In this document: positions 1-56,920 of the stretch, in pieces
Layout of the letters: each line of letters starts with the position of its first letter
How positions within the stretch are numbered: the first letter of the stretch is position 1
Assembly (NCBI GenBank): GCA_037379345.1
Contig: CM074516.1
Location: forward strand, 8,556,001-8,620,000
Length of the DNA stretch: 64,000 nucleotides
Source of the DNA: Perna viridis
Taxonomy: Eukaryota
Direction of reading: 5' to 3'
Made by a program: the position numbers and the translations under genes
Notes under the pieces: generated by a model
What the model saw: only the letters and a program-made list of their open reading frames with translations
The model's database searches: none
What the model was told of the DNA's origin: nothing

Positions 1-48
1 TTTACTTCATTTTTGCAGAAAAAAAGAAGTTACAAGTATAAAAAACGT

Positions 49-793
49 AAACAAGACGCTGCAAGGACCCTAAATAGCTCACCTAGTTATTTTTTTTTTC
101 AAGGACAACAACTCTAACTTTAAGGAGCTGTCCAACAGTTTTGACTCAATTAAAACTTTGGTAAAACTTACCTGAAGGATCCTTTTATCAATTGAAAGTT
201 TCATTCTATCTATTATAGTTTTCAAAATATTGGCTGAAAACTGCTTAAAACGTATTTTGTTTGTCTTTCAAGGGCAAAAAATTTAACAAGGAGTCATCCA
301 ACAAGTTTGATCACCACAAACATTTGTAGGTCATGTCATAAGGATCATTTCATCAATTAAAAGTTATATTCTATCTATCATAGTTTTCAAGATATTGGCT
401 AAAATCTTTAAAAAAATAAATCATTTTTCACCTTTCAAGTGCAATAACTCTAACAAGGAAACGTCTGACAACTTTTTCTCCTTGGAGACTTTAGTAAGCC
501 TTATAATAAGGATCATTTCAGCAATAAAAAGAATTTGGCAAAACCTGACGGTTTTGGAGATATATGCAAAAAACTATTGTCTGACCTCTTTGTACTATTA
601 TTAGTAATGGCAGCCATGTTTTTCGACGAAACAAAAATCCCCATTTCAGTTCTATGGAGGATACCACAAGAAACATTCATATTAAGTTTGGTTCTAATTG
701 GTTAAGTAGTTTTAGAGGAGAAGAGTTTTGTAGAATTGTTAATGACGACAGACGTTGACGGACGCCAAGTGATGGCAATAGTTCATATGGTTT
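49..793. mobile_element. Non-autonomous Helentron/HINE (pearl-like) element with internal ~168-bp satellite-like monomers
   Basis: Ends AAACAAGA..TAGCTCACCT and GACGGACGCCAAGTGATGGCAATAG..CAGGTGAGCTAAAA (subterminal AGCTCACCT/AGGTGAGCT inverted motif). Three diverged monomers start at ~97, ~266 and ~433. A related copy lies at 47801-48728. Confidence 0.75.
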
Positions 794-1002
794 AGGGACA
801 GGTGAGCTAAAAATGATTTTTGCCTCAACAAGGTTTAAAAAGTAACCAAAAATACAAAAAAGTACAGTTTTGAATTGTTCAGATATGTTGAGTAAATCAT
901 TATCTTAATTATGAATGCCTAAAATATGAGTTTCACAGTGTCGGTATGGTGTGAATGAAAATTATGTTTGATACTGGGACCAGTTTTCTAGGGGTAGGGG
1001 GA

Positions 1003-1522
1003 GCCCTGAGCATGTCCGGGTGTTAAAAGAATAGGCCTGCAGCAGCACTAAGCTTGTCGTAAAAGGCGACTAAATAGTGCTCAGAAACCTAGCCGGGGGC
1101 TAGGCGCTCTGCCCACAGAGCAACTGGGATGTGTGCCTCAGGTGGTGGAATGGGGTACCCCTGGCATGTTGGATGCTTGGGTTTTCTGGCTGTGATACAG
1201 ATGGCCTGACCGCAGACCATAGTGGTGCACTGTGTTGGAAAGATGCCACGTTCCTTGCACGTTAAAGAACACTGCTGTGGTATTCGATAGGAGTAAGAAC
1301 CTTTGCGCTCCGCCACAGGAGGCTAAATTGCCCAATCTTACCCATCCCTCCCTTTAACTAGTGGCATTCTAAATTTGTCGACCCTATTATCCTTGTGTGG
1401 CATCCCTATTTTTTCATTTCATCATCATTCATGTTCATTTCATCATCTATTTCATGTTCATTATCTGAATATAGCTAAAATATTGCTGCTCGGACGTTAA
1501 ACCCCAACAATCAATCAATCAA
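1003..1522 (+). mobile_element. ~500-bp SINE-like retroposon without tRNA head, copy 1
   Basis: Homologous to 58346-58857 and 63088-63558. Has a (TCAA)n tail and a 14-bp TSD TCTA(G/A)GGGTAGGGG at 987-1000 and 1523-1536. Confidence 0.85.
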
Positions 1523-1939
1523 TCTAAGGGTAGGGGTAATATTTTTAACATTTTTTTGAAAACTCTTTCTTGAAAATTAGTTTTGGTGGTTTATTAAGGT
1601 AGAAAATTAAATCTAGTCATGCAATAACTTGTAGAGTGGAATTTATGTAAATTTCGCAGGAGTTGAAATTCCCATGTTTTTGGAATTAAAAAAATATATT
1701 CTTACTACGATAGTCGCCACAAGTCATCAACAGACTCCCAGGTGTATCAATTGCGATCATATTGAAGGTAAATAACAAATAAGCTATTTTTTACTATAGA
1801 ATAAACACTCTAGGGTGACTGGACAGACTACCCAAGTGTATTTCTAATCGGCGTTGTGACGTCTATTTTGCCTTTTACGGACTGATTTGAAGTTTACACT
1901 GGATCGGAAAGTTCTGGGGTCACATGTCATCATGAAATT

Positions 1940-2320
1940 TTTGTCCACATCATGTAAAGAAACCACATCACATAAAGAAGAAATCACTGCACGTAAAGAA
2001 AAGAAGATGCACATAAAGTATTTAGAGATCGACATAACGTAAAGATGAAACGACCTCACGTTATAAGAAAACCACTGCATGTAAAAATAAATCAACATAA
2101 TGTAAATATATGTTGACATAACGTAATCATAAAACGACAGAACATAAAGAAAAAATTACAGAACGTAAAGACGAAATGACAGAATGTAAAGATGAAATGG
2201 CAGAACGTAAAGACAAAACGACATAATGTAAAGATGTTCCTACATAACATAAATACAAAGTGACCAGATGTAATTATAAAACCACAGCAAGTAATATAAA
2301 ATTGACAACACGTAAACAAA
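1940..2320. repeat. Degenerate 21-bp minisatellite (consensus ~CAGAACGTAAAGACGAAATGA)
   Basis: Recurrent CGTAAA/TGTAAA motif at 21-nt spacing. It produces the spurious 7-aa periodic ORF 2092-2319. Confidence 0.8.
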
Positions 2321-3188
2321 TGTGTATCTCTTCAGACAGTTTAGGCGTTCCATACTTTAAGAACATGTTACTATAACATGTATAAGAAACAAGTTCTCAA
2401 TGACAATCTGATCACTTACTATATTCAATTAAAGTTACTGATAATACATATACTTATTCATTTGCAATTGTTGAAAATGGAATTATAGTATTAAACTTAT
2501 CATATTTGTTTATCATTTATTAGAATACATGTCCTTAAGATACAATTTCATACCAATGCGATAAAATATTCCAGTGGTGAAGTATGATTTCTCCCACTTC
2601 CTGACTCACTCCTCCCTATCACTCCTGGAAGGGAGAAGTCACGTCTCCTATTCACTGAATCCTAGATTATGCTCTGTGGATACATGTAAGTGAAGCATTG
2701 ATTTGGAATTTACAACGGCTAAACCATAGTACTGATGATATAACACCCTTTCGGAAACTTAACAAAATGCTGGCAACAAAATTAAATGTATAAATGTAAA
2801 AATAAGTCTAGTTTGAACTTCATGACCCTAAAATTCTGCTCCTTGGAAATTGACATGTAAGGAAGGGGTCATAATAAAGTACCACACCAAATTATTGGAA
2901 GTGTTTGAACTGCACGACCCAACAAACCTATATCCAGATACAAAGAGAGGAGAGGGTTGAAGGGTCAGAGAAACTTATCTCTGACCTTGCCTACGAGGAT
3001 TTCAGGCTCAACGTGACAATTTGCATCATCAGTTGAATCAAATGTGTTATTTAAACACATAAATTTTGCCAATATCAATTACCTTTTGTCGAATTAGATA
3101 GAGATTTACTTAAAAGTGAACAAGACCGTTGAAAAATCTTCACGAGTTGTTGACCGGAAGCCATTTTCCTATGTGATTATTGACAAAA

Positions 3189-3728
3189 CCTAGATGACAG
3201 CCCGATCACGAAGGTTTCTATTAAGCTAGTATGTTGTGTAGTATGTAATCCCTGGAAAAATCGGCACAATTTCACTTAAATGAGAAGTTAACGGAAGGTT
3301 TTCATTAGTCTCTAAAGTGGTTAATTGTCCTGCCCCGTGCAAATAGTTGCTTTACCCTTGGTTAATACATTCAGCTAGTATATATATCAGATATATGTAC
3401 ATAAGTCCCTGGTATATATCATTGACCTCCCGGATTATCTTAAACACGACAAATAGCGATTATTTGCTGACGACAGTATTATATATATACATGTATACCC
3501 ATTAAATGACAGAGTGGCTGCATTAAACTTCAATGTGATCTTGATGCAGCAGCAAAATGGTAACAAGACTGGCCAATGGCCTTCCACCATGATAAATGCA
3601 CTGTTCTCTCTGTCTCCTGTAAACGAAAACCCATCAAACACAGTTATTATATTCTTCATAACAACATCCAAGAAGTTGTCACATCAGATAAATATCTTCA
3701 GTCTAACCATGTTAAAATGGGACAAGCA
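3189..3728 (+). repeat. Left copy of a long direct repeat flanking the Gypsy element; includes a CR1/L2-type LINE RT fragment from ~3410
   Basis: Aligns to 11963-12462 at roughly 90% identity with a ~50-bp indel. Encodes IDLPDYL..RLFADDSIIY..LQCDLDAAAKW..W.MAFHHDKC. Confidence 0.9.
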
Positions 3729-4053
3729 GAAAGTGAGTTGGATGCTAGGATTTTGGAGCCCATCTCATCTCCTGGTGACATCACCGGTACATGTCCTCTA
3801 TGGTCCGAGAGAATTCCCACCTGGGGTGTGACTCATCCTTGATCCGACGTAACAGTTGTGCCACTTATATCGGAATGTTCTAACCTAATTCCACAACACC
3901 CCCTCTTTAAAGTTTAGTGTTAAAAAGGAGTAATTCATATTCCGACAAAAGTCAACTGTCTGAAATTCCTTTCACATCACTGATAGTGGTAACTATGGTG
4001 AATCGATTTGACCATTACATGTATGTCATCAGAGACAAACTCGCTCTCGGAAA
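3728..4053 (-). repeat. Inverted copy of the Gypsy 3' internal end, PPT and first ~167 bp of the LTR
   Basis: Reverse complement matches 11471-11791 at roughly 90-95%. On the minus strand the PPT AAAGAGGGGG (3899-3908) abuts the LTR start TGTTGTGG (3891-3898). Confidence 0.92.
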
Positions 4054-6455
4054 GACAACAAGGTCAACCAATACTTAGTCCGAGTGATGATTTGGCTAGA
4101 CTTAAACATAGTACTCCAAAAATGGACAAGAGGTCAATTGGGGTGACAGATAAACTTCGTCAAGTCAATAACGAAACAGATAACCTCAGAATGGAGTTGA
4201 ATCAGTTATGTCAACAATCTTTTGAACAACTGGCGGAGTCAAGTGGTGATGAGTCATTAAAATATTCATTAAACCAATCTGATATTGACGTTTTAACATC
4301 CAAGCGCCAAAAACAAGTAGGCTTCAACAACATTTCAAGTGATGTCAACAAATGTCAACAAAGTTTCAACAAGCCTCTACAAGTTTATACAGTGTCTTAA
4401 CAAATAACCATGGGTGTACCAGATAGCCCGATAGACACCATAAATAATTCTGAATGTCAGCAAAGTTATGATAGCTCTCAACAAGCTGTCAACAGGCTTC
4501 AACAAGGTGAATATGATAATAAATCACCTATGTTAGGTTCTCACCAACCAACATTTAAACAACCAAAAAGAGAGGCCTTTATATATGTTAAGCATCCATT
4601 CATCAGGTGTTGAAACACAATAAACAAGAATCAACATACATTCAACAAGATACCAAATGGAATGAAACGTTAGAACTATTTAAACAAGTAGTAAGTCAAC
4701 GTAATCATGTTCATCAGGTGATACTATCTAACCAAGTACCTCAATTACAACATCAACAAGGTATCAACAAGGTTCAACAACCTATCAACATTGCTAATGT
4801 GGGTACGGATCCAGTTCCACATTGACACATGTTAATATGCAGAATGATGGACTTTTACAAAATGTCAACAAACATCAACATCATTCAACTAACCATTAAC
4901 AGGATAGAGTAGCTTTCACCAGCTATCAACAAAGACCACATTATGTGTCTACACATAAACGAGATCAAAGGGTAACTGTACTAAGTCCCCAATATGTGAA
5001 AGCACATTCAACAGGTACGCAACAAGAATATAAGGATTTTTCCCCTAAGTCATCAGAGATCCATAGGTATCAACAATGTAATGAGACACCAGTAAGACCT
5101 AACACAATGAATATAGTGAATCACAGCACACATATCTCACGTAAAGCAGATGTATTGATTGAAGATAGCCATAAGACAGTGAGTTCGCACTCACAAATTC
5201 ATCGATTCGGAAGTAGACCAGTGGGTTTGATCCCAAAAGCTCCATGAGAGTTAGATCAACAATATAATGAGTATACAACTCAAGACTCTGAGTTGTCTGA
5301 TAGATCATCAATAGTTCGTCAGAGAAAAGGCAGACGACCGAAGGCTCAGGCTAGACGTGATAAGAACATAACTCGTAGATACGAGTCTGACTCTTCCACA
5401 GAAGAAAGTGACATTGTGTATGATGACTACAATCGACGACCAGTGGAACAGAGAAAGATAAGAGATAGTCATAGAACAAATCAAGAAAGTCATATGAGTA
5501 GACAATCGCTAAGGCAGCCAACCGAAGAAAAGAACCTTATCCAAGATACCTAGTGGTTTGAAGTTCACAGAGAAAGGTAATTGGAAGTCTTTTTATACCA
5601 AGTTTAAGGGGTATGCTAGATTGGAAGACTTGAATGATAAGGAAAAGCTTTATCAACTGTGTTTCTGTCTAGAGGATAAAGCAAGTGACTTCTACACTAT
5701 GCTTTTGGAACAGGACAAGACGATGTCGTTTGACACACTAATTCTAAAGATGGAGAAGAGATTTGGCCTTTTGGAGTTGCAGGAAACTTCGCAACTCCAG
5801 TTCAGACAATGTGTGCAAGAGCCAAATGAAACTTTAGAAAAATGGGCTGATAGAATTGTGTGGTTTGTAGCAAAAGCCTTTAAGGATTTTCCTGAAGAAC
5901 ATATGACTGAAGAGGCAATAATGAGATTTTGCTAAGGATGTGATGATGGTCAAAATGCATGCATGGCGAGGCCAAATTCTATAGAAGGTGCATTGGACAA
6001 AATTAAATGGTTCCAACATACTAGAAAAGCGTGTCAGTCTGTTACTAAGGTGGGTACACCTAAAACAGAATCAGAACAGAGTGTGAAACAAATAGATACA
6101 CCCGTGGTACAGGGATTGAGCCAGGACAATGGCGTTATGACTATTTTGAAGAAAATGAGTGACAACGTAACTTAGCTCAGTATGTACCAGAGACAAATGA
6201 AGACCAGACAAAGTAATCTTGAAAGACGACTGTCCCATTTCAAAAGGTGGAAACAGACGTTCTGAACCTCAAATGAGAAATTCTCCAGATACAGGGAGAA
6301 GACCCTATCAGGAAACACTTCCAGGTGATAGGAGTTATAGATATGGTAGAGGTATTGGTCGTGGATGGAGAAACGGTAGACGATCCAATGAGTGTTGGTA
6401 TTGTAGAATTCCAGGCCATTTTGCTATTGATTGCTCTGAGAGAAAACTAGGATGA
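4054..6455 (+). pseudogene. gag: Gag pseudogene: long Q/N/S-rich N-terminal region, capsid-like domain (~5558-5950), CCHC zinc knuckle (6393-6434)
   Basis: KFTEKGNWKSFYTKF..LEDKASDFY..EKRFG..FRQCVQEPNETLEKWADRI; CWYCRIPGHFAIDC fits CX2CX4HX4C. Broken into many ORFs. Confidence 0.85.
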
Positions 6456-6549
6456 AAAAAGGAAGCAATCCCAAAAGAGAAAGAAAAAGGGGAAGAAGTC
6501 CAAAGTAAAATTTGACTCTGAAAGTGATAACATTGAAGAAGCTAAAAAA

Positions 6550-6930
6550 GTGAATGATGGAACAGCCAGTGTAGCATCACTAGGAACAGCTAGTTTGTTA
6601 AGACTGAAGGGCTGTATCCAAGGTATTAATGTGAGTGCTATGATTGACACCGGTTCAGAAGTAACCATAATTCAGCAGAGGTTATTCAATCAATTGAGGA
6701 AAAAGCCATTTATTATCAATTATGCATGGAGCCGGGACAGAAATGTCAGTGAAGTGTAGTATAGTTAATCCAACGAAATTCTAATACAGGGTCAACCCTT
6801 CACTGAACGTCTGTACGTAGCACCCTTGGATTGTGATATGCTAATAGGGGATGATTTCCTAAGTAAACACAAAGCAACTATTGACTACAATAGGCTTGAA
6901 CTGACACTGGATGGGAGGTTTGAACTGACA
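6550..6930 (+). pseudogene. Retropepsin aspartic protease (degenerate)
   Basis: AMIDTGSEVTII active-site motif (~6638-6673) and downstream DMLIGDDFL motif (~6835-6861). Confidence 0.85.
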
Positions 6931-7399
6931 AAAGGTAGTGAGTCAGAAACTATAGCCTCTGAGATGAGAGTACATAAAGTGACAATTCCGTAGACTGTGG
7001 TGGTTCCTCCATATTCAACAGTAAAAATAATACTTGGACAGCATTGCATGAAAAATGATTATGTGGTTGAACCAGTAGAAGGAATGAAATTGTTCATGCC
7101 AAGTACAATATGTTCTAAAGAGAATGCTCCAACTGTGTGTATGCTGAATGTTGGTGATAATCCTGTAAAAATTCGGCAAGGAACAGACGTTGGTGTTGTA
7201 CACCCAGCATCAGTATTTCAGCCGAAGGATGAGAATACATCAGTCAGCACATGTGTCGGTCATAAGTCAATAGAAAAGATAGAGAATGATGAAATCCCTG
7301 AAAACTTGAAGGGATTGTACAAGGATGCTTGTGAACAGCTGAACCCAACACAAAAGAGGCAACTGAAAAGGTTGTCATTAAGATACCATGATGTATTTG

Positions 7400-8660
7400 C
7401 CACAAACGACTTTGATCTAGGAAACTTCATAGCAATTGAACATTCGATAGACACAGGAACAGCAAAACCAATCAAACACAGAATGCGTAGAACCCTAGAC
7501 TGTTTTGTGCGGGAAAGAAGCACATTTGCAGAAAATGTTAGAAGCAGGTGTAATACAACCTCCAATTTCGGAATGGTGCTCTGCACCAGTTCTGATACGT
7601 AAGAAAGATGGCGGAGTACGCTGTTGCATAGATTATAGGAAGCTGAATGCTGTGACAACTAACGATGTGTTTCCATTACCACTGATAAATGAGTGTCTTG
7701 ACACGTTGTCAGGAAATGTGTGGTATGCCAAGTAAGATGCCAATAGTGCCTACTGGTAAATTAATATTAAAGAAGAAGACCGAAAGAAGACAGCGTTTGT
7801 AGCAAAGTACAGTCTATATGAATGTGTAAAGATGGCATATGGGTTGTGCAACGCACCCGGAACTTATGCCAGGGTAATGAATTTTGTACTCCGAGGATTA
7901 ACTTGGAACACAATGTTGGCTTTCCTAGATGATATCTTGGTTCTCGGTACAACATTTGAAGAACATTTAAAGAACGTGGAAGAAGTATTTAAGCGTTTCA
8001 GGGAGTATCAATTGAACTTGAAACCCAGAAAATGTGCACTTTTCAAGGAATCAGTGGAATTCCTGGGAAGAGTTGTAAGTCAAGAAGGACTTGAAATCCG
8101 CCCACAACATTTAAAACCAGTGAAAGATTGGCCTATTCCAACATGTACTAAAGATGTGGAAAAGTTCCTAGGATTCGCCAATTATCATAGATCGTTCTTG
8201 AGAAATTAAGTTTCAGCACCACTGTATAAAATTACAGGCAAGAAACCATTTACTTTGAATCTTGAGAGACAGCAGTCCTTTGATCAACTGAAAAGAAGAT
8301 TACTTTCAGCTCCAGTGTTAACACTGCCGAATAGTAAAGATCCTTTCATCTTAGACACAGATGCGTCAGACAAGGCAATAGGTGCCGAATTAGTCCAGAT
8401 GCAGGATGGAAAAGAGCGAACTATTGCTTATGGTAGTTTAGTACTTACACCAGAACAACAGAGATATTGTACTACCAGGAAGGAAGTGCTTGCTGTGATT
8501 CCTATTGGGTACAGTTTGTAGCACGCACAGATCATAGTAGTCTCACATGGTTGACAAATTTTATAGAACCACAAGGCCAACTGGCTAGATGGATAGAAGA
8601 ACTGGGTCAGTATGATATGATTATCAAACATCGACCAGGACGTCATTATGGTAACGCTGA
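7400..8660 (+). pseudogene. pol: Gypsy reverse transcriptase and RNase H (degenerate)
   Basis: W.SAPVLIRKKDGGVRCCIDYRKLNAVT, MAYGLCNAPGTY, FLDDILV, VEFLGRVV, FLGFANYHRSF; RNase H motifs FILDTDASDKAIG, RYCTTRKE, RTDHSSLTWL, NADGLSR. Confidence 0.95.
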
Positions 8661-9194
8661 TGGTTTAAGCAGGATACCTGATGTAGTACCAAGCTGTACT
8701 GAGTATAGACCTAGAATCGAGCTAAATCAACTGCCATGTAATTGTTGCAAGTATTTCACCAGAGCTCATAGAGACTGGGCTAGATTTTTGCAGGAGGTTG
8801 ATGAAGCTGCACCTCTAACCAGGAAGGGGAAAGTAATAATAAACCGGTTGAAGAACCAGAAATAGCACTGGTTGAACTGTTTAATGAAACAGAGGAAACC
8901 AATGTAAGACCAAAATGTGGAGGGGAAGTTAATCACTGTTTAAGTACCAGTATAGAACTGGAGTGCTCTCCTACAAAGGCAATGATAATAGCAACCACAA
9001 GTGTGATGTGTGCTGTTATAGCTATATCCCGTGGGGAAGGAATTAGCTTGTCAGGCTTTTCTTCTGACGAGATAAGAAGCGAACAAGCAGAGGATTCGGA
9101 GCTAAAGCCTTAGTTAGCGTGGTTAAAAGTCGAGGAGGAGCCCACACAGAATGAACTGTTCATATCGACTAAGAGTTATTGGATTAACAAAGAA

Positions 9195-10360
9195 TTGTTT
9201 TTCCTGGATGAGGATGGTATACTGAAAAGTAATCCAAAGAAAGAGAGTGGAAATATCCGAATGGTGGTGCCAGATTCTTTAAAAAATCTGATCATGGAAT
9301 TATGCCATGAATTAAAAAGTTCAGGACATCAAGGTGTATCCAGAACCACCACGAGGGTGAAATACAAATATCATTGGTATAATGTGTCAAGAGACATCAA
9401 ACACTTCGTAGCGACATGTGAAATATGCAATAAGAATAAGAAGCCAACTAGGTATGGGAATTGCCCTATGACCAATTATCAAGCTGGTTATCATATGGAA
9501 AGAGTATGGATTTCATGGGTCCTCTCCCGTAAACGAAAAGCGGGAATGAATATATACTAATGATGGTGGATTAATTCACTGCTGAATGTATACCATTGCT
9601 ATCCAAGACAGCAGAAGTGACAGCCCAATCTGCAGTGATTGAATTTTTTAGCAGATTCGGATACCCTTTTGAGATATTCTCTGATCAAGGAAGAAATTTT
9701 GAGAGTACTTTATTTAAGGCGGTATGTGATTTACTTCAGATTCACAAAGCTAGAACGACGCCTTATAGACCCTCTGCGAATGGTCAGGTGGAAAGACAAA
9801 ATCGAAGTTTAATAGATGCAGCGAGATGTTTTGTAAGTAAGCAGCAAGACAACAGGGATGCTCACTTAGCCCAATTAGCTGGAGCATTAAGACCTAGTGT
9901 AAACCGAAGTATTGGGTATACCCCAAATATGCTGATGTTAGGTCGTGGGACAAATCAGCTAGTAGATTTGATGTATAGGGGTACAGGTACGAACACATAT
10001 GAGGGACCAGATGAGTATGTGGTATCACTAGAGAAAGCAATTCATGATGCACATGAGGTTGCCCGGAAGACTCTAAAGACCACCCAATTGAAGATGAAGA
10101 ATTATGACCTTCGTGTATTCGAGAAGCAATATAAAATTGGAGATCTGGTATATGTTTTCGATAGTGCCCATCGTCTTGGAAAGGCCCAGGAATAGTACTG
10201 GCTATGATTACATCTTATGTTTATAAGGTGACGATCCAAAGAACTGTGTTTAACACAAACCATGATCGTTTGAAAGTGTGTAGAGATAGGAAAATTCCGT
10301 CATGGTTGAGTATGTGTAGAGAGAAGCTGCTACAAGGTGAGAATGTTCTCATCAAGAAGT
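9195..10360 (+). pseudogene. Gypsy integrase (HHCC, DDE core, GPY/F-like WKGP) (degenerate)
   Basis: CHELKSSGHQG..CEIC; IFSDQGRNFES; RTTPYRPSANGQVER; WKGP at ~10178-10190; NHDRLK at ~10258. Confidence 0.93.
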
Positions 10361-10372
10361 AAAAAACCACAG

Positions 10373-10510
10373 TATTGTGTGTGTAGAGGACCAAATACCG
10401 GTGAGATGATGGTTCAGTGTGATAACTGCAAAGAATGGTTCCACCTGTCATGTATAAAGATCAGTCCCTAAGATGCTGACGAAATGGAGACGTATATATG
10501 TCCTAACTCT
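10373..10510 (+). pseudogene. PHD finger at the integrase C-terminus (not in ORF track)
   Basis: Manual translation YCVCRGPNTGEMMVQCDNCKEWFHLSCIKISP*DADEMETYICPNS gives C-x1-C-x11-C-x2-C-x4-H-x2-C-x15-C-x2-(S, TCT one change from TGT). Confidence 0.9.
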
Positions 10511-11269
10511 CGGTTCGTAGCGTCGCGGAACTCACAAAGGCAATAGCCCTTCCCTTAAAAAAGTAGGGGAAGGGGAAGTGGTGGAAGGATACCCAGGGGA
10601 AAGGAAGTGCTTTCCCAGAGTGGGTTAAGGGTGATTCACTCCGAAAAGAGGGATCTCCAATGGCAGGGATGATACAAGCCAATAGGATAATTTAGGCCAT
10701 TTTCAAAAATATAGTTGTGATTTTGTGAAAAGTTTAAGTTATTACTTTTCTGTATTAATTGTATTTTGTATGTTGATTAAATACATGTATTTAGAATAAG
10801 ATTAATTCTAAAGTTTCTGAGGGTTATGTTAGATACGTCCTTTGAATGAGACGTTAAACCGATGCCCCATGTGCAAGGAAACGTCACGCCTTGTGCATGA
10901 GTGGTTGGTGTAAAGGTCTAAATTATTTCATTTAATTTTTAAAATATAGTAATGTTTTCAAGTGACAATCAAAAGTTTTAAAAGTCTATTATGTTTCAAT
11001 AGTGATTAGTCACGTAAAGTTGATATATTTTTACTGGACAATTCATGTTAAGTCGTAGCACTTACCGGAAACTGCAGATATGGTCGTGCGATTTGTAATC
11101 TTGTGGAGAGACGTCAGGAAAAAGTTCATTGGATGTACACATACTCGGGCGGAGTAAGGTGTTGTTCGATGACCATGGTGGTTTGTCACCTGATGGTAAT
11201 TGGTATTTCAGTGAAACCAAGCGAAAGCTGTTGAGCTAGGGTTGCGGGTTGAATGAGACTGAAATGGAG

Positions 11270-11374
11270 TGGTTTTCCAACAGAGCCGAAGAAAAACTGC
11301 GAATTGGTTTTCCAGTAGAGCCAAAGAAAAACTGCGGATTGGTTTTCCAGTAGAGTCAAAGAAAAACTGTGGAT
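11270..11374 (+). repeat. Three tandem 35-bp units in the Gypsy 3' UTR
   Basis: TGGTTTTCCAGTAGAGCCAAAGAAAAACTGCGGAT-like units starting at 11270, 11305 and 11340. Confidence 0.9.
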
Positions 11375-11616
11375 TTATTCAAGTCAGTTCCTTTGATCAA
11401 ATAGTGGATCCTGTTCAGTGATAGTCGTCCAGTATTAAATCATCATATAATTACGTTTCTATGACTTTTATTTCTGATAGCGAGTTTGATGTTATGTCTC
11501 TGGTGACATACATGTAATGGTCAAATCGATTCACCATAGTTACCACTATCAGTGATGTAAAGGGAATTTCAGACAGTTGACTTTAGTCGGAATATGAATT
11601 ACTCCTTTTTAAATTT

Positions 11617-11624
11617 GAGGGAAG
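11617..11624 (+). promoter_or_regulatory. Polypurine tract (degenerate)
   Basis: GAGGGAAG directly before the LTR TG. The inverted copy preserves AAAGAGGGGG. Confidence 0.75.
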
Positions 11625-11962
11625 TGTTGTGGAATTAGGTTAGAACATTCCCATGTAAGTGGCATAACTGTTACGTCGGACCATGAATGAGTCGCACCCC
11701 AGGTTGGGAATTCCCTCGGACCATAGAGGACATGTACCGGTGACGTCACCAGGAGATCGGCTCCAAAATCCCAGCATCCAATTCACTCTCTTCTACACGT
11801 GGTTTCATCGGAGAAGGTTGTGTGTAACATCGCTCCAGAGATATTCCATATTAGGAAGGTAAGGCGTGAGTCTATGTTCAGTACTCTCTCTAATCTCTTA
11901 GAACTTACTCTAACTATATTAAGTCCAACAGCCACACAATAATTATACATAGCACCACAATA
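11625..11962 (+). repeat. 3' LTR (338 bp)
   Basis: Starts TGTTGTGG after the PPT and ends CCACAATA (7/8 terminal inverted repeat). The end coincides exactly with the start of the flanking direct repeat. Confidence 0.8.
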
Positions 11963-12462
11963 CCTAGATGATAGCCCCGATCACGAAGGATTCTATTAAG
12001 CTACTGTGTTGATAACGGAAGGTTTTCATTCACAAGTCGTTTCGAAAGTGGTTAATTGTCCTGCCCCGTGCAAATAGTTGCTTTACTCTTGGTTTATACA
12101 TTCAGCTTGTATATATATGTTAGATACATGTTCATAAAGTCCCTGGTACATATCATTGACCTCCCGGATTATCTTAAACACGACAAATAGCGATTATTTG
12201 CTGACGACAGTATTATATATATACATGTATGCCTATTAAATGGCAGAGTGACTGCCTTAAACTTCAATGTGATCTTGATACAGCAGCAAAATGGGAAAAA
12301 GACTGGCCAATGGCCTTCCACCATGATAAATTCACTGTTCTCTCTGTCTCCAGTAAACAAAAACCCATCAAACACAGTTATTATATTCTCCATAACAACA
12401 CCCTAGAAGTTGTCATATCAGATAAATGTCTTCAGTCTAACCATGTTAAAATGGGACAAGCA
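11963..12462 (+). repeat. Right copy of the long direct repeat
   Basis: Matches 3189-3728. Both copies start CCTAGATGA and end ATGGGACAAGCA. Confidence 0.9.
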
Positions 12463-13227
12463 CACTGATCATTTCAAAAGCCAATAAAACACTCGGATTT
12501 CTCAAAATGAACATGATGACAAACAACCAACCCATCTAAAGTCAAGCATACTTAGCCCTTGTACGTCCCGTAATTGAATATTTCTCCTCAGTTTTGGATC
12601 CTCATTCCCAAGACTCTATTTCGTAGATACTTATTAGATGTATGGTTCAGAGGTGGGCTGCTTAGTACGCCTGTAATAACTACATGTACCACAACACCAA
12701 TAGTTTGTATCTGCTATGCTGAACACACTAAACTGGCCAAAACTACAAGAACGCAGTTTGCGTAGTCGCCTTACAAGTACATGTAATAGTGCATATTGTA
12801 TATTAGATCACACAACTTGTTGCTATACCATCCAGCACAATTCTGAATTCCATCAGATCCAAGAACCAGAAAACATTACGCTCTCACCTTCGGACATGTC
12901 TACACTACTAAAGATTCTTACAGGTTTTCATTTTTCCCATACACTATCACTCAGTGGAACCTACTACTTTTTACAGTTGCCCATTCTACCTTGGTAGACA
13001 TCTTCAGAGAAAGCTTTCATTGTTGTTCTCTCACCTTATTTGATAATCTTTATCTCATGTACATAATTTTAATCACAAATGTCTACTACTTCTGTTCTTT
13101 ACACAATTTTTCTTCATGTAAATATGTTTAATTGCTACACTTCATGTATATAGGTCACACATGCACCTGTGAGTAATCACCTAAACTTAGATGGTTTACC
13201 GGAAAACTGAAAGAAGGAAAAGAAGAA
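12140..13227 (+). mobile_element. 5'-truncated decayed CR1/L2-type LINE (RT C-terminal half and 3' tail)
   Basis: RLFADD; LQCDLD...WEKDW.MAF; AYLALVRPVIEY; VQR.AA; LNWPKLQER; YRFSFFP.TITQWN; GAA-rich tail at ~13210-13227. Confidence 0.85.
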
Positions 13228-16200
13228 CACAGTGACTTTACATAGACCACTCTAATATTCAATCCCTGCTTAACATGATAAAAAAATATTCAGTGTTAAA
13301 GACAGTTAGAATTTGATAAGCAATAGACAATAAATAGACAATGAACAATATTTATTTGCATCACAGTAATGCAACAATACAAGAGCATTAAAATAGTCCT
13401 TAAAGAACTACGTTTATATGCCCATGATTAATATACAAAAATGTAGGATAGATCAAAGACTGAATTCTTCAAAGGCGCTGATCGTCAATTATAATATACC
13501 ACCGGCAAATCGGCGATAAGTTTCATTATATTTTTATATAGAAACATGAGCAAGGAAGCCAACTCCGTTCTCAGTATATTCCTCATTGCATTGTTATACA
13601 GAAAATCCACGTGAAGATAAATTATATGGCTTACTTAAGCTTCGACTCTGTAATGTTCGAGTACATAACAATGTGGCTGTTTTTTTTTTCTAAAACGGAT
13701 CAAGATTTTCTTCTAGTAACTACATAACTTATAAATTATATAGGTCCTGATAATCTATATGACCTATATAGTCAATTGTAACGAACCCATATGTCTGAAT
13801 CGGAAAATGGGTAATGTTCAATGCCAACTGATCATTAATGTAAATTTCCCGTTCTCATACAGGCAAAAAAAAGCACTCGTGGAACACTTATGTATGATAT
13901 TTAAGGGTACATTTTGATCTCGTAATTAGAAGTTAGAACTACGAATAGTTGACGTTAAACACGGCACCGATCCGCAGTTTAATGTGGAGTAATGAATTAT
14001 TTAAGTATGCAAATCATATGCGAATACAAAGTACTGAAAGTACGAGAGCAGAAGTCCCTAACAATATAAGCGACTTAAAAAAGAAAAAAAATAACATATG
14101 TTCCATTCCCGTTAGATATGAGATAACAGCATTCGTTCAGGAATATAAGTGTTAATTTTAGTGTATTAGTACTATTGCTACTTATTATAACGGATAGGTC
14201 CTTTACTGTAAAGTGGGGTTCTGATTTAAAGAAAAAAACGAGCACTTTATTTTTATAGTTTGTCTCGATATATTGTGTATTGAGGGCATGCATACTGAAT
14301 TGAAGTGATGTTTTTATCTTCGATGTCAACACTATCACATATGACAGGCAAATACGATTATCTCATTTTTTCTGTTGTTGTTAATATTTTTTGTATCATG
14401 ACTTGTTACTCCTATATTCTGTTTTTGTTTTGTTTTGTTTTGTGTGTTTGTTTTTGTTTGTTTGATTTTTTGTTTGTTTCTTTTCGTCCCATTTTCATTC
14501 TTGACATATGAAGTTTCATAAATGGCTTCGTTAGACCAAAAAAAAAAACATAAGTACTACTTCATATAAAGAACAAAACAGTTTTAAATCTCTCCATTTC
14601 GATCTCAAACACAAAAAGAAAAAGGAAAATTGAAGATTCTAGAAAACAAATAGAAAGTCCAAGTAAATATATACAGGTGGACAAATCAAGGTTATCTTCT
14701 TCTTTGATATAAACAAACAAGACAAACGTTGTAACGCGAATTTTTTTTGAAGTCTAGGAAACTGATCTCAATGGGATTTCGTAATATGAAAACCTTCTTG
14801 AAGTGATATGAATTTTACGGAAAAATAATACTTTTTCATTTACAGCCATTGGCATTTTTTATCTTGCATTATTTAAATTTTCATATATATACTAACATAT
14901 CATGGGAATTAAGAATATGCATAAGACATTTAATGATATTCCATTGAACTTTTTTAAAAAGATGTGCATGTAGGATTGTTCTATTTGTTTCCATTAGGCA
15001 TTCAATATTAGTTGTTGTACTATGAATACCGGAATTTCTTTTATGAATTCAAGTGCAAGTGTTCATAGGATTCTGATTTACTGATTTTTTTCCAGCTCCC
15101 CAGATCTCACTTCCGTATCAGACAACGTGTACTACTAAATTGTCAAAAAGATGATCAACGGACAGAGTGAATGAGATTAAAGTAGAAATGAAGAGGTAGA
15201 GGAGAAAAGAAATTATCAAGAATATGAAACACCTAATGGGTGACGGCCATGTAAAAAAGGTTGTTTGACTATTTCAGTTTAAACCAGGCCTTCACCCCTC
15301 CTCTTCTCCATTAAATTACCCTTAGAGCTAATTGTTATTCCAAGATAATAGCTAGTATATGATTTCACTGTCTCATGGATCTTGAAATAATTGAGAAAAG
15401 ATTAATCATTTGAATTTCAATTGGCATTTTCTACACTTGGAAGGAAATCTTTGACTATGCTTATGAGCCTCGAACTGTCGGCAAACGAAATAGAATTATG
15501 ATTGCCCAGACCATACTGTTTCTACATGGATCAAGATTATTAACTACGATTATTATGTACGATCCCGGTACAGAAACAGCTAGTTTTTTTTTTCAGGAAA
15601 ACAGTTTATAAATGACGGCTGGTAGTGGGGACATTCAGAGTTGATTGTTTCACTTTATTGCATGGTTTGTACAGACACTTGATGTTAAGTAGTATTATAC
15701 AGTCCCGGGTTTGTATTTTCATTACTCATGTTAAAACATTTAAATACGCACTTAAGGTTTCAGTATCGTATTCATTTTCCCATAGACTTCTATAGTGAAG
15801 TGCATATTTTTAGGATTTTTTTAAAAAATATGTAAATTCATTCAATAAAACTTTCACTTATGTAGCATTTCTAAGGACATATGAAAAAAATAATTTCCCG
15901 CAGAGAAAATAGGGTGAGTCCACGAAGATAGGACAGAAAAGTAGTCTTGAACTATAAAAACCCATTTTCTCTACTTTCACTTTCGCTTTGCACTCATTAA
16001 ACCTACCTTTTCAGTGGAACATTTTTATGTCATTATGATAGATTTTCTTCTAAAAAGTTTGTCATCTTATAGTGTGATGTTTGCTCTATTTTATGAGTCA
16101 TTGTTCATACCTTTTGATATAACATTAGTTTGTAGAGAGGCAAAAAAAAAAATAAAATGCACTACATTTTTATAGCATCCATGTTTTGACGTACACCCGC

Positions 16201-18275
16201 TCAGGGATATGCAATGCGATACTGGTATCTTTATGCGTATATAATATATGACACTGGAGTATATACCTTTATTTCATATCAGTGAAAAAATCATAAATTT
16301 CAATTGGATAAAACCTTTTCACGTGGTATTATAATTAATCTGCAGTAAAAAGTTTTACCAGTCAGTACCATGCTGTGATAATGCCCGATTACGAGTTGCA
16401 CCCCCTTATTCAAACGCATTCATGATCAAACAGTTGTCAATGTAAATATGACAAGCCGTACGTCTGCTTCTGACGCAGAAACGTTTTGCATTGCCTTCTT
16501 ACAAAAAATCAAGGTTATGGTTCCTCAATAAAATACACATAATAGTCTGACGGCACACATTTATACATGTATTTGAACAACAAATTACCCGCGGTCTATA
16601 CTCTATACGTGAAATAAATTATCCGGGAGTCTATCTCACAGCACACCTTTATACGTATAATGAATAAACGGAAAGTCTCGATCATGAAACTCTATTATAC
16701 TCTCAGCATGCAAAACATCTTATTAAATGTCGTTACAATTTCACAAAGTCACTGCATTTCATTTCGTTGGTCATTAAACTTCGATACTCTACAATATTTA
16801 TATGTACCATAATAGAATATATCAACTTAGAATTTTACAAACAGCCAGGGAATTCTTGTTATCACAAATTACTAAAAAAAAAGCTATGATAGAAAGTTTC
16901 TTCTGAGACATGTTTCAACACACTTTTGCATATTTAGTTAAAACTTGTTTATAGACACTTATGCATATTCTGTTTTGTTTCCAGAAGTAACAGTTAAGTG
17001 TAAGAGTCGTTTGTTTTAGTTTTTTTTTTCGCTCTATACGTATAGTCCATGGGCTTGGATGGTCCACCATGCACCCCTAGTTGTCGACTTTGTAATGATT
17101 ATCAGGTATTTGTACTTTACATCCCGATTATCGAATTAATTTGTAGCCAAAGAATATTCGCGGATTCTTTATCGGTATAAGCCTAGAATATTTGTACCCC
17201 ATAGACACAGGAAGCCAAGATTTTGTGAGTCAATTATTCGAATGTCTAAGTCCTCCTATGACATCACTTGTAAAGAAACTAAATATAAATAGGTGTCATT
17301 ATGTCACCTAATGTCTCAGCTTTTAAATTTTACCATAATAATTGTAGTAACATTTCGGAGTAAAATGAAAAATACGTACCCTTACCCAACCGGAAAATTG
17401 CTTTAATTGACACTTTTTTTCAATGTGAAATCCTTACTGTATTTACACTTTGGTAAAAATGGTTTCTTTGGTATTTTCTGTTTAATACTATCACAATTGA
17501 AACTTCGGGATGCTTTTGAAGACTGTAAGAAAATTGCAAAAATGGGATTTTCAATTTTCCCATAAGAAGTTGCATAAATTCGACTCGACAATCTAGTGCA
17601 CAAACAAAACGCCTCAAATTTAGTATCGGATGCTTGGGTCAATCACCGGATGAGGCTGCATGACATCAAGATCGGAAACATGGTTTTTCAATAGGACATC
17701 TGGTCTAGCAAGTTACCAATATATAAGACTACTTATTATGACCATTCCGACTCTTAATAAAAACAACCGACAACCAAACAAGTGTCTACATGAACAATAA
17801 AAGCTATCCCTAATAATTACATTCACATCACTATAATTACGGTCCGTTTGATCCAAGACCACTTTTGCAATATCATTTTGCACTTCGACTTTGTGCCGAG
17901 AATTTGCTCCCAGAATTTTCACTCCAAACTTGTACCCGGAATTGTCACCGGAGTTTTAAAGGAAAAAAGGGAGGAAAATATAACAAGAGAAGATTTCGGA
18001 AAGAGGAATACTGAAAACGCAGATTATGAAATATCTTATGGATGCAATGACAACACCAAAAGTATAGGAAACCTTTCAAGCCAATAAAACAATAACAAAT
18101 AACATAAATGTGATGAATTAAATTGACAAAAATCCAAGACGGATGAGTCACGGCCATCGCCACTATACATCACCTTCTTCATTACATACAAAAACCTCTT
18201 GGATTTCATCACACTCAAACTAAACTCTATTCTATACCTCTCACTCTACTACACCCCCTTTACAAAACAAGTCTT

Positions 18276-18713
18276 GCGCTAGAACTCTAACAAATAGGCT
18301 TCTAGAACAGGGTTATGTTGTTACAGGATTGAAGTCATCACTAAAGAAGTTTTATGGTAGTCATCATGAACTCGTGGATCGTTATGGTGTATCCATCTGC
18401 ACTATGAAAATGGATTTATTCAACGGGTCATAGTTTTCCTTTCCTCGTTTTTCTACCCCAGACTTTACTTTTTATGAGCAACTCGGCGGGTGTTTCTAGA
18501 AAAGCAGAGGACGCTTACCATACCGGTGCACCTGGTCCATGCTCCCAGTTTTTAGTGGAGTCCGAGTGGATCGTTTGCTTTTGTTACTTTGTATGTATGA
18601 TTTTAGTTACTTTATGTTCTTTGTTGTGTATGTCTGTTATCCATGTCTGGTCTTTGTCCTTACATTACATTCTTTTGATTACCGCTATAACCTTGGTTCC
18701 CTTGATTACTCTT
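18276..18713 (+). mobile_element. PLE family A, 5'-truncated copy
   Basis: RT-thumb end (..QGYV.TGLKSSLKKFYGSHHELVDRYG..) followed by the shared ~290-nt 3' region ending CCCTTGATTACTCTT. Confidence 0.9.
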
Positions 18714-18920
18714 GGACACTCCTGTTTCTGAACCTACCCCATCATTATATAGACTTATGACCATCATAAGTCACAAACTAAATTCCCTCGTATTTCAAAG
18801 ACAAATTAATACCAATTATTTCATATTCCTATACACCTATTTTCCCTTCATTACCCTTTCAATTATAAAAGGCTATTGCAGGACCTGTGGATTGAGACCT
18901 TCAAGGCTAAATCACCTTGC

Positions 18921-19276
18921 AAAGAGTAATCAAGGGAACCAAGGTTGTTGTGGTAATCAAAAGAATGTAATTCAAGGACAAAGACCAGACTGCTTTTCTA
19001 GTAAAACCTGCCGAGTTGCTCATAAAAAAAGTCAAGTCCGGGGTAGACAAACGAGGAAAGGAAAACTATGACCGGTTGAATAAATCAGTTTTTATAGTGC
19101 TGATGGATACACAATAACGATCCACGAGTTCATGATGACGACCATAAAACTTCTGTAGTGATGACTTTAATCTTGTAGCAACATAACCCTGTTCCAGAAG
19201 CCTATTTGTTAGAGTCCTAGCGCGATACAAAAAGTCTGCGTAGTTTCGGCAAGCTCTGGCATAACGTATGAGTTGT
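18921..19276 (-). mobile_element. PLE family A, 5'-truncated copy with internal deletion
   Basis: Reverse-complement match to family A. The deletion near 18990 removes most of the 3' structured region. Confidence 0.88.
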
Positions 19277-20106
19277 AAGTTGTTGCAAAAACTCCCAATT
19301 TAAGTATGAATACAACAACTTAAAAATCCATGATTATTCAACTCTTTATACTTCTATTGACATTATACAATGTTGTTACTCAAAAGAAAAGGTACACCTA
19401 GATACAAATATGTAGTATAGATTCCTCATACTTTGAAAAAAAAACCAATTCCAAATCATCTTCCAAATATACCAAAGACGATGTTTACAAAATACTGGAA
19501 TATTTGTTTGACAACATATTCGTCCAGTGTGGTGGACGCGTTTTTCAACAAACGGTCGGCATCGCAATGGTAACAAACTTTGCTCCTCTAATTGCTGACA
19601 CCTTAACACATGAAAACTGACAACAACATAAGACTACATATTATGACAACTCAGACTACTATCATAATCAACCGGCAATTCAGCATGTGTCTACATGGAC
19701 AATAAAATCCATCCCTAATTATTAACTTCACACCACGATACTTACAGACCAAGACTACTTTAGTAACAGCATTTTGCACCTAGATTTTACAAAGAGGATT
19801 TGCACCTAGGATTCGTTTCCATAAATTTCACCTTGAATTTTATCACAATTTTCACCCGTTATGGTCACCGGAGTCTTGCACCGGACCTTTGCACCCAAAC
19901 AGCAAACATGTACCAACCATCTAGGACTGTAGATTTCATGAAACATTAACATAAATAAATTATTCAACTACTAACTGTTGCGCTTTCTGAAATCCCTCTT
20001 ACATATTTTCCATCGTTTCAAAAGTTGTCGCGTTGAAGACTTCAGTATTTATTAGCAGACGTAATCAAAACCCTCTGTTTCCGGTACCGATGAGTGTTTT
20101 TATTAC

Positions 20107-20928
20107 AAAAGTAATAAAGGGAACGAGGATTCTAGCGGTAATCAAAAGAATGTAATCCAGGGACAGAGACCAGACATGCACAACAAAGAACATAAAGTAA
20201 GTAAAATAATACATACAAAGTAACAAAAGCAAATGAGCAACTTGGACTCCACCAAAACTGGGAGCATGGAATAGGAGCACCGGTAGGGTAAGCGTCCTCT
20301 GCCGATTTGCTCATAAAAAGTCAAGTGTCAGGTAGACGAAAGAGGAAAGGAAAACTATGACACGTTGAACAAATCAGTTTTCATGGCGCAGATGGGTACA
20401 ACGTAACGATCCACGAGTTCATGATGACGACCAGTAAACTTTTGTATTGATGACTTCAATCTTTTAGCAACATAACCCTGTTTCAAAAGCCTACTTGTTA
20501 GAAGTCTAGCGCGAGATAAAAAAAGTCCGCTTAGTTTCGGCAGGCTCTGGAATAACGTATGAGTTGTGATATGAACACTCCATACGCAGGTCTTGAAGGG
20601 ATGTTGCCACAGATGAAAGGAATGTTGGCAATTTCGAATGAGAAGTCACCACTATTGTCGTAAAGTTTGGTCGATAGTTTTCCCTCACCATCGATTTCTA
20701 AGTGTAGGTCAAGATATGAGGCTGACTTCACAATGTCTGTAGTATACTTTATCTCAAGTTCTTTGGGGTAGATGCGATAAAATCCCCGAAATTAGGATTG
20801 TTTAAAGATAATACGTCATCTACATAGCAGAAACTGATATTAAAGGATCTAGCCAAACGATATTCTTTCTTTCGGATTTGATCAGCTATAAAGTCAGCCT
20901 TATAAGAGTGAAGGAATAGGTCAGCAAG
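20107..20928 (-). mobile_element. PLE family A, 5'-truncated copy
   Basis: SASYLDLHLEIDGEGKLSTKLYD..GNIPSRPAYGVFISQLIRYSRAC plus the shared 3' region. Confidence 0.92.
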
Positions 20929-22189
20929 CTACGGTCTGGTCAATTTGTTAAAACATAAACTACTCCGACTATTTCTGAGTAAATAATTTTCAAAGGTTTA
21001 ATTTCACATTAGAAAAAAAAAATTCAAGTAAGTTAAAAAAAAGTTCAAACATCACTTTATATAAAGCAGCAATTAACCAAACGAAAAAGCTGCGATTGTA
21101 TATTGCAAGTATAGAGTTCGATGTAATAGTATAACTTACTGAATTAGTCTTCGTCATGCTGGTATGCACAGACGACCATTCAGCTTTGTGTACCGGAATA
21201 TTTTTCCATGGTAGTGTTGTTACCTTTAATTTTTACCACAGAACTCAGACGGACAGTCGTTTTATGTGAGGGTGGAGATATGTCGAGAAATACAACTATT
21301 AAACGAGAAGAAGACCCAATATAAGCAAATGAGTGTAGTTTCAAAAAGGCAAAACATGTAACACTGATGTCTATCAGCAGATAGAAGGCGTGTAATTGAT
21401 TTAAATAGCTCTCCATGTTTACCAAATATAAATTTGTTTGTAAGCATACGAATGTGGGACAATTACATGTACATTTGTATGTTTCAGTGTAATCAAACTA
21501 AGACATAATACAGGAACGTGAGAAATCAATCATTAAGTAGTCAAAAGATCACTTAACAGTTTGATTCATGGTAAACATGGTGTTTAGATCTTCTCAACAG
21601 GGAAGTTCAGACAAGCAAATTTGATAGTGCCGTTCAAATTTAGGATTTGATGTGACATTTGAAGCAAGCAGACAAGACAGGCTTGATCATTTCTTCAATT
21701 TGCAGACATTAAATACGTACACTAACTGACGTTCGAGTATAATGAAGGACCAGTTAGCCTGTAATCTATTATTTATCTAATTTGTTTTTCAGAACTTTTA
21801 AAATGTAAATGTGACAATAGCTGATAGAATAACAGCAAAATGCTTTATCTTGGAATTAAAGGTAGAATACATTTACAGCAAAATGCGTAGATTAAACGCG
21901 TTACATGCATAATCTGTTTGAAACTTGCAGCTATATATATATACTTTCTGTGTAAAGTTTAGTATAGTTTAGTAGAAACACAGCCTAGACAGTCATGCCA
22001 TTAATAAAATTATGCTTTTCTTTCAAACGCATTCCGAACAATTCAAGGAAAATGTACAAGGAAGCGTGTACCAGATTGGTTGTCATGTGTGATGTGCATT
22101 GAGTATGCAAATAGTCTTCATGAGATTTCTTACGGTAAATTAGTGATGCACAATTTAACACCTTGTAAAAATAAATATGATGATGTATA

Positions 22190-22990
22190 ATTAAGAAATT
22201 AAACCGGGAAACTCCATTTTGTCATTGTTTTACCACGGGCTGACCATTATCATTATCGTCATCATGAACTCGTGGGTCGTTATGGTGTATCCATCAGCAC
22301 CATGAAAACTGATGTATTCAACGGGTCATAGTTTTCCTTTCCTCGTTTGTCTACCCCGGACTTGACTTTTTATGAGCAACTCGGCGGGTGTTTCTAGAAA
22401 AGCAGAGGACGCTTACCCTACCGGTGCACCTGGTCCATGCTCCCAGTTTTTAGTGGAGTCCGAGTTGCTCATTTACTTTTGTTACTTTGTATGTATGATT
22501 TTAGTTACTTTAGGTTCTTTGTTGTGAATGTCTGTTTTCCATGTCTGGTCCTTGTCCCTGGATTACATTCTTTTGATTACCGCTATAACCTTGGTTCCCT
22601 TGATCACTCTTTAAACCGCAATATTTTATCCCAAGCGATAGCGAGGGGTAAAATATCGGCATAAATGGTCAGCCGTGGTAAAACAATGATAAAATGGAGT
22701 TTCCGTAATTTATTTCGATTCTAATAGGACAATAACGGTACTTGTTTACATTTTCGTGACCTATTTTTACGATAGCCTTAGACCAGCCATATGTGTCCAT
22801 ATTTAGCTGTACGCTGTCATTTGAAATGGTCGCTATTGAGATTTTTACGGAATATCGTATAACTGTTCTAAAACATAATGTTGAACTTTAATATTTTTAT
22901 TAAATATGAATTTGATGTTCATTCACGCAACTGAAATTAATGAAAACAGCTGATACACATCGGAATGTTACGTGTGTTTGTTTACCTTAT
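22190..22990. mobile_element. Foldback/MITE-like non-autonomous element hosting a PLE insertion
   Basis: Arms GAAACTCCATTTT..GCTGACCATT (~22208-22248) and AATGGTCAGC..AAAATGGAGTTTC (~22664-22703). A related copy in opposite orientation lies at ~47305-47630. Confidence 0.6.
22256..22612 (+). mobile_element. PLE family A, 5'-truncated copy
   Basis: HHELVGRYGVSISTMKTDVFNGS* plus the shared 3' region. Confidence 0.9.
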
Positions 22991-55990: not shown

Positions 55991-56920
55991 CTTGTCTTCC
56001 GCTTTAATTTACTACAACCATTCTTGAATAAATTGAATTTAGAGATTAGGACATGAACTATCAAGCTATCAAGAATACTTAGTCAGTTCTTGCCGTTATA
56101 TTTTATACTTAAATACATATAAACTCAGCTTTAGAGGATGCATGGAGTGGAACCCATTATTATTTATGCCGGATGAATTCTCTTCGTTTTAGTAAGGATT
56201 TATTTTTGATAAGAATATACATGTAGTAGCATTTGCTATAATTTTGTTCTGACTTGGGTATTGATACCAGCCTATCTTTATTATGGGTGAGTTGAGGTTG
56301 TAAAAGATGATTTATCTTAATTACACAACTAATTACAAAATGAAGTTAAGTGCATTAGTATATGGTAAGGTGTTAGATAACGTATGACCTTCTTTTCACT
56401 GAACTAGCGACAGGCTAAGATAAATGTCTTGAAAATGTTGGCATAATACGATTTTAATTTCATGGTCCTCAATTACTTTTGATTATAAGATTTCTTGTTC
56501 ATGCAACAACATTGTTTATGATTGTTAAACCAGTCTATAAGCATTTAGCTTCAGTAAAAGGGTTCAAATATTAGAATTTTTATATACTTGTCTACTACAG
56601 AATAAGAAGTAACCACTTAAATTATACACCAAATGTGCAACTTCGATGCAAAAGAATTACAATCTTTTTTGTCTCAATCCAATGATATCCCATCCGATTA
56701 TGTAATTCTCCTAGATGTCATACTGCATATAAGTCATATTGTCTCAGTTACGGCAGTATGTTTCAATTTAACGTATGTAGTTCATCGTTATACGAATGAC
56801 ATGTCTCTTACTGAAAGTTAAACTATTATAAATCAACGAAGAATCCTGTAATTTTAAATCGTTGAAGTTGCACTTTTTTTAATGGAAGTGTCGATTGTTA
56901 AAAAAATATTATTCCCAAAT

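Follow-up and report, generated by a model that had tools for sequence, protein, structure and literature searches.

For heterochromatin marks, it is established that a retrotransposon can guide its integration with a reader domain of its own. Chromoviruses such as MAGGY have the domain order PR-RT-RH-IN and carry a methyl-lysine reader, a chromodomain for H3K9me, as the last domain of their integrase, as given in the available portions of the relevant papers (PMC6673714, 10.1101/2021.11.30.470311). In the same portions, PHD fingers are called widespread in retrotransposons and possibly integration-guiding, with the ORF1 PHD of CR1-like elements cited (PMC6673714), and fusions of PHD fingers and chromodomains to integrase and reverse transcriptase domains are broadly catalogued, including PYGO-type PHDs in cnidarian retrotransposons (10.1101/2021.11.30.470311). 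Among individual elements, Gypsy-7a_cRei from Chlamydomonas carries a PHD and shows a 2.6-fold bias towards intergenic sites, but the figure legend in the accessible text places its finger between RH and INT (10.1101/2022.06.16.496473); Ginger1-9_HM also has a PHD, but is described in the text at hand as a DNA transposon with Ulp1 plus PHD (PMC2836005). Outside retrotransposons, the PHD of RAG2 guides the DDE recombinase RAG to H3K4me3 chromatin (PMC6941560, available in part), and a tether bearing the ING2 PHD redirects HIV-1 integration toward start sites (PMC8149907, available in part).

Within a 64,000-nucleotide stretch of Perna viridis DNA (hereafter the window, meaning the whole stretch that was analysed), a Gypsy element shares the chromovirus domain order and ends its integrase with a putative methyl-lysine reader, but this is a PHD finger of predicted H3K4me3 type in place of the chromodomain, and the element belongs to a lineage of marine invertebrates. 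Membership in the chromoviruses was rejected on these grounds, PF00385 (chromodomain) being absent among the 120 matches listed for its integrase; by analogy, the lineage may nonetheless work like a chromovirus tether. Whereas the cnidarian fusions have a PYGO-type PHD, the finger here resembles those of PHF2, BPTF, DIDO and CFP1. The host readers PHF2/PHF8/KDM7A, BPTF, DIDO1 and CFP1/Spp1 share its C4HC3 fold and its Tyr/Met/Trp cage at ~50% identity, but are host regulators, unlike the retrotransposon finger. The RAG2 PHD and engineered ING2 PHD-LEDGF tethers are H3K4me3 readers that steer a DDE enzyme to active chromatin, but there the reader is a separate protein, whereas here the putative reader is fused to the element's own integrase. 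For PHD-bearing elements in general, the PHD has been proposed to affect insertion or chromatin; their hosts and element types differ from the present ones. PHD-bearing Gypsy and Ginger elements are thus already published, but the lineage described here, with its PHF2/BPTF-like finger, appears undescribed in the literature searched. Term searches of the available main text of mollusc and annelid clade surveys (MolGy/PolGy) returned no mention of a PHD (PMC6238403, PMC8556966), and no description or functional test of the lineage was found in a search of paper texts that included few subscription papers. Two further papers (10.64898/2026.05.21.726589, PMC5291243), consulted in part, contributed nothing specific.

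Table 1. Features of the PHD-bearing Gypsy element in the window.
Feature	Position	Strand	Basis and remarks
Rearranged 5' end replacing the 5' LTR	3188..4053	.	3' flank repeated at ~3188-3726; ~11477-11800 present as an inverted copy at 3725-4053
Gag region, 5' part lost	4052..6260	+	PF14893 5e-07, PF03732 1.4e-05; sisters align from 4052
Protease, reverse transcriptase, RNase H	6514..8856	+	PF00078 6.3e-18, PF17919 3e-24; tblastn to P0001
Integrase H2C2 zinc domain and DDE core	9267..10170	+	PF17921 4.5e-18, PF00665 1.5e-07; stops and one frameshift
Integrase C-terminal domain (WKGPG, HDRLK) and linker	10165..10359	+	flanked by frameshifts near 10171 and 10360
PHD finger, integrase C-terminus	10373..10510	+	PF00628, E 1.1e-11; frame naturally ends at 10546
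Polypurine tract and 3' LTR	11612..11962	+	LTR 11625-11962, 338 bp, TG...TA ends

The window element is a decayed, dead Ty3/Gypsy retrotransposon (Table 1). Its Pfam domains follow the Gypsy order (Retrotrans_gag/PNMA, RVT_1, RT_RNaseH, Integrase_H2C2, rve), a protease DTGS motif can be read near 6646, and its sister copies show the 338-bp LTR, a polypurine tract, a primer-binding site (PBS) and 4-bp target duplications. Several stops and frameshifts interrupt the PR-RT-RH region, and the 5' LTR is missing. The 5' end of this copy is an old local rearrangement: comparison of 3188-4053 with 11477-12463 indicates that the 5' LTR, the PBS and ~1.2 kb of internal sequence have been replaced by a repeat of the 3' flank (94% identical) and an inverted piece of the 3' UTR/LTR. 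The repeated flank looks LINE-like by eye. In two raw RNA runs labelled with the same species, no reads fell on 3336-13340, a region that a DNA-like run covered, and the copy is therefore silent in those samples; no RNA source was listed as carrying the element. As a single locus, the window copy is a fossil with no special value.

The preliminary description of this locus had proposed a C4HC3 PHD finger, interrupted by one nonsense codon and separated from the integrase by a single frameshift. The profile comparison that it called for confirms the domain, which scores 45 bits against PF00628 (cut-off 24) when the stop codon, present at 10469-10471 as described, is entered as X. A six-frame reading of 5000-12000 gives the pattern Y-C-x-C-x11-C-x2-C-x4-H-x2-C-x15-C-x2-S, with the same translation as before. 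Seven of the eight zinc ligands are in place and the eighth is a serine (10508-10510), so that the C4HC3 set is incomplete in this copy; ligand 8 is also serine in the C9 copy, and cysteine in those on C2, C4 and C14. Similarly, the frameshift near 10360 was borne out, but a second frameshifting deletion near 10171 also lies between the integrase core and the PHD. Neither deletion occurs in the C4 and C9 sisters. The putative cage residues, Tyr 10373, Met 10409 and Trp 10436, align with identical residues of PHF2, Spp1 and CFP1, in agreement with the cage originally assigned. The segment is therefore a genuine PHD finger at the C-terminus of an integrase, broken in the window copy.

Six more copies match the integrase end elsewhere in the genome (723 Mb, 46 contigs). 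In the C4 sister, a natural open frame of 381 aa links the integrase core to the PHD, and the C9 and C14 copies have their linker and PHD in a single frame, so that the in-frame fusion expected in other copies is found. LTR pairs are only 90-97% alike (five pairs), and these insertions are therefore old. Across the PHD, dN/dS was 0.09-0.42 in four of five sister comparisons, on small and non-independent counts, and 1.08 against C9, on six changes. The window and C9 copies share the serine at ligand 8, and a template with a damaged finger has therefore probably still spread; this suggests complementation, or a finger that is dispensable in the short term. A PHD search of the genome gave 20 matches which, by reading, comprise seven of the element's own family, seven in other Gypsy-like families and six host-type PHD genes; one further PHD family was seen in the same genome. 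The host genes lie at loci of their own, most of them apparently interrupted by introns, to judge from matches that break off. In the C9 sister (C9:32281870-32288868), the 5' LTR lies in three tandem 3.3-kb units that are 98-99% alike.

Beyond this genome, the fusion is a feature of an entire lineage, as had been surmised. With the C4-frame protein as query, which included the first part of the PHD, PF00628 was detected in 113 of the 120 listed integrase relatives, and a full C4HC3 set with all eight ligands in 110. An RT-RNaseH-only query was used to remove this bias: 35 of its 120 listed matches stop before the integrase C-terminus, and among the 85 that reach it 80 bear a PHD, three break off at or just before the PHD and two have different tails. 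An in-frame PHD is thus found, besides the sister copies, in ~100 distinct relatives, and its position is that of the chromodomain in chromoviruses. The sources given by name are Pinctada, Ostrea, Haliotis, Nucella, Lytechinus and Anneissia (molluscs and echinoderms), with a brachiopod also among the relatives; further relatives come from records labelled as symbiont MAGs, which probably hold host DNA. An Atlas cluster of 80 members has the PHD in 99% and rve in 94%, with Mollusca as its commonest phylum (strongly scored). Clusters with over 100 members also appear in the search.

A tree of 144 RT-RH-IN sequences (97 with a PHD, 10 truncated and 37 other; one duplicate was omitted) unites 96 PHD elements in one group, with a support of 0.49 for the whole and 0.93 for 93 of these. 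The sisters of this group have acidic tails; P0212, which has a PHD, nests among them, and P0039, without a PHD, lies inside the PHD group. Given this grouping and its two exceptions, the finger marks a lineage in these sequences, with some gain, loss or exchange. The PHD-less sister lineage is likewise widespread, including in the same genomes. In several of its members (L284, L292, L082-L085, L301-L302), the long acidic integrase tail is closed by a short basic motif, R..R..P..L.DY, which is perhaps another chromatin-contact device. Among individual relatives, P0024 has an RNA 2'-phosphotransferase (Tpt1/KptA, E 4e-43; residues 1065-1234) between the integrase C-terminal domain and the PHD, and P0149 has a helix-hairpin-helix motif (PF12836) at the N-terminus of gag.

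The residues of the H3K4me3-type cage are under strong constraint. In the 78 of the 80 PHD relatives (RT-RNaseH query, among the matches listed) that have a full C4HC3 set, the Met before Cys3 and the Trp two residues before His are invariant (78/78 each), Tyr, Phe or His precedes Cys1 in 77 and Cys3 is followed by Asp in 70, whereas conservation at positions beside the cage is only 24-49% and the PHDs average 55% identity. We take the Tyr before Cys1 and the Trp to be part of the H3K4me3 cage. The finger is the last domain, a median of six residues from the protein end, and follows the integrase C-terminal domain after a linker of ~30 residues. By sequence, the best PDB matches are PHF2, Spp1, KDM7A, DIDO, PHF8, CFP1 and BPTF. 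The C-terminal 140 residues of an intact relative were modelled from a 16-row alignment (mean pLDDT 78.5, PHD 93-96, pTM 0.42), giving a beta-rich integrase C-terminal region followed by a helix, a flexible linker and a PHD that matches BPTF, PHF2, DIDO and PPS at ~1 Å r.m.s.d. and 50-57% identity; many or most of the top structural matches were solved as H3K4me2/3 complexes, and Pygo ranks far lower. In TAF3, changing the cage Met to Ala weakens H3K4me3 binding more than 100-fold, according to the available part of the report (PMC8246079). Because the cage Met and Trp are invariant and the nearest structures are H3K4me3 readers, and in view of the effect of the Met-to-Ala change in TAF3, the finger is likely to bind H3K4me2/3.

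How such binding might serve the element can be outlined from the domain layout. The integrase, once cut from Pol, would carry the finger on its ~30-residue linker past the C-terminal domain; the finger would grip H3K4-methylated nucleosomes, and the integration complex would be held at open, active chromatin. On balance, we lean towards the view that the integrase finger of this lineage binds methylated H3K4 and would tether the integration complex to active chromatin. By analogy with known tethers, it is slightly favoured that this tethering biases or speeds integration. The more specific proposal, that this large and old Gypsy lineage from marine invertebrates directs its new copies to active promoters by means of an H3K4me3 reader of its own, is tentative and somewhat doubtful. 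A built-in reader of active promoters would be the opposite of the heterochromatin case. If true, the lineage would mirror the chromoviruses on the euchromatic side and be a natural counterpart, in one protein, of RAG2-PHD or the ING2-LEDGF tether, with consequences for how such elements influence gene regulation in molluscs and echinoderms. Since the lineage is large and a PHD-less sister group occurs in the same genomes, the question is directly testable.

The comparison of insertion flanks drew on 38 flanks from 27 insertions in three PHD families, after exclusion of four regions of unclear layout and of several LTR matches that were duplicated or partial. The other sets were 40 random regions of 10 kb, 20 first exons of Ras-family genes and the 3' flanks of 28 PHD-less Gypsy insertions, the remaining 12 of 40 fetched lacking a definable end. 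In the first kilobase, CpG observed/expected was 0.77 for PHD elements, compared with 0.63 for random regions (p 0.09) and 0.74 for PHD-less Gypsy (p 0.82). No CpG peak was seen at the junction, near values exceeding far ones (3-6 kb) in 16 of 27 PHD insertions (p 0.35) and 16 of 28 PHD-less controls. The genome has a two-peaked CpG pattern, and values below 0.4 occurred in 2/27 PHD insertions against 30% of random bins, but also in only 3/28 controls, so that avoidance of CpG-poor domains is generic and was discarded as a PHD-specific trait. Strict promoter-type motifs, from a set picked after some flanks had been viewed, occurred in 8 of 38 PHD flanks, against 22/400 random bins, 10/111 far bins and 3/20 Ras upstream bins. 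This apparent excess (p 0.002) was also rejected: it stems in part from a 470-bp MITE, the removal of which leaves 5/38, and it disappears against the PHD-less controls (7/28). The targeting of active promoters suggested previously thus gains no support here, in that PHD insertions and PHD-less Gypsy are about alike in CpG and motifs, on weak proxies and old copies. The flank test speaks against strong, lasting promoter targeting, but does not count against a bias that acts during insertion itself: the PHD copies are old and have passed through selection, the controls for the most part seem younger, numbers are small, and the CpG proxy is weak because even the Ras-family first exons, as positive control, gave no significant peak.

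These results bear most directly on the main alternative, that the finger binds H3K4me3 without any choice of site, serving instead to give the integration complex access to chromatin in general or to retain it there (for example in germ cells), or acting after integration on the chromatin state of the new copy. An invariant cage that yields no PHD-specific signal at insertion flanks would be expected in this case, and Grau-Bove et al., in the available part of their text, hold that aiming at active chromatin would be harmful and that such fusions may serve evasion of silencing (10.1101/2021.11.30.470311). Nevertheless, the finger occupies the chromodomain position, which in chromoviruses directs integration according to the accessible text (PMC6673714, 10.1101/2021.11.30.470311), and with flank proxies as weak as the Ras exons show them to be, we regard a function without site choice as rather unlikely, if deserving of attention. 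For the preferred reading, a tether to active chromatin, it follows that any integration bias was probably modest or has been erased by selection, because the old surviving copies are without such a signal.

It is also conceivable, but improbable, that the cage binds another ligand, such as a methylated non-histone protein, a histone mimic or a lower methyl state (H3K4me1/2). The fourth cage position varies (Asp in 38, Trp in 15, Tyr in 13 and Cys in 7 of the 78) and could shift specificity, and PDB titles record the PHF2 PHD with a VRK1 peptide (7m10, 8f8y); however, the great majority of the top structural matches are H3K4me2/3 complexes, and Asp at the fourth position is also found in TAF3, as far as the available text shows (PMC8246079). 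Although the finger of the window copy is broken and out of frame, the idea that the PHD is a mere passenger, derived from a host gene or lying next to this one insertion by chance, has next to no likelihood: it is refuted by the in-frame integrase-PHD fusion across sisters and relatives, and the location of the finger within an LTR-bounded element and the host PHD genes at separate loci also speak against it.

An affiliation with 'Selgy', which had been brought up at the outset and which we took to be possibly a Sec-tRNA-primed animal Gypsy group, was examined and gained no support. Priming by tRNA-Sec was excluded: the PBS of the window family begins TGGTAG and that of a second PHD family TGGCGCTG, whereas TGGCGCCGG would be needed for the host tRNA-Sec. 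In the paper of Neumann et al. 2019 (PMC6317226), Selgy is a clade restricted to Selaginella moellendorffii, and 'PHD' has no occurrence in its available text; membership in this clade was rejected, the named relatives of the present element being molluscs, echinoderms and a brachiopod. The PBS differs between PHD families, and the one in L055, TGGCGACGAG, fits a host tRNA-Ser. In two PHD families (window 11625-11962; L135-L164), the LTR ends are TG...TA rather than TG...CA, with 4-bp duplications (seven insertions, by eye). About 50 tRNA genes form a tandem array with a 520-bp period at C6:43388203-43414625; the one that was read is a tRNA-Ser(GCT).

Around the element, the window's first 20 kb showed no evident host gene start, and RNA reads within 1-20000 fall on repeats only. 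Nested copies of one abundant repeat occupy 18270-22700; a 165-bp short tandem repeat lies at 155-531, and a reverse-transcriptase fragment with an FRYIDD motif at 56858-57355. The 470-bp MITE (L212, L213, L222, L265) is young, has TA duplications and adjoins or hosts three PHD-element ends; it carries an ETS-like CCGGAAGT beside a TATA-like box.
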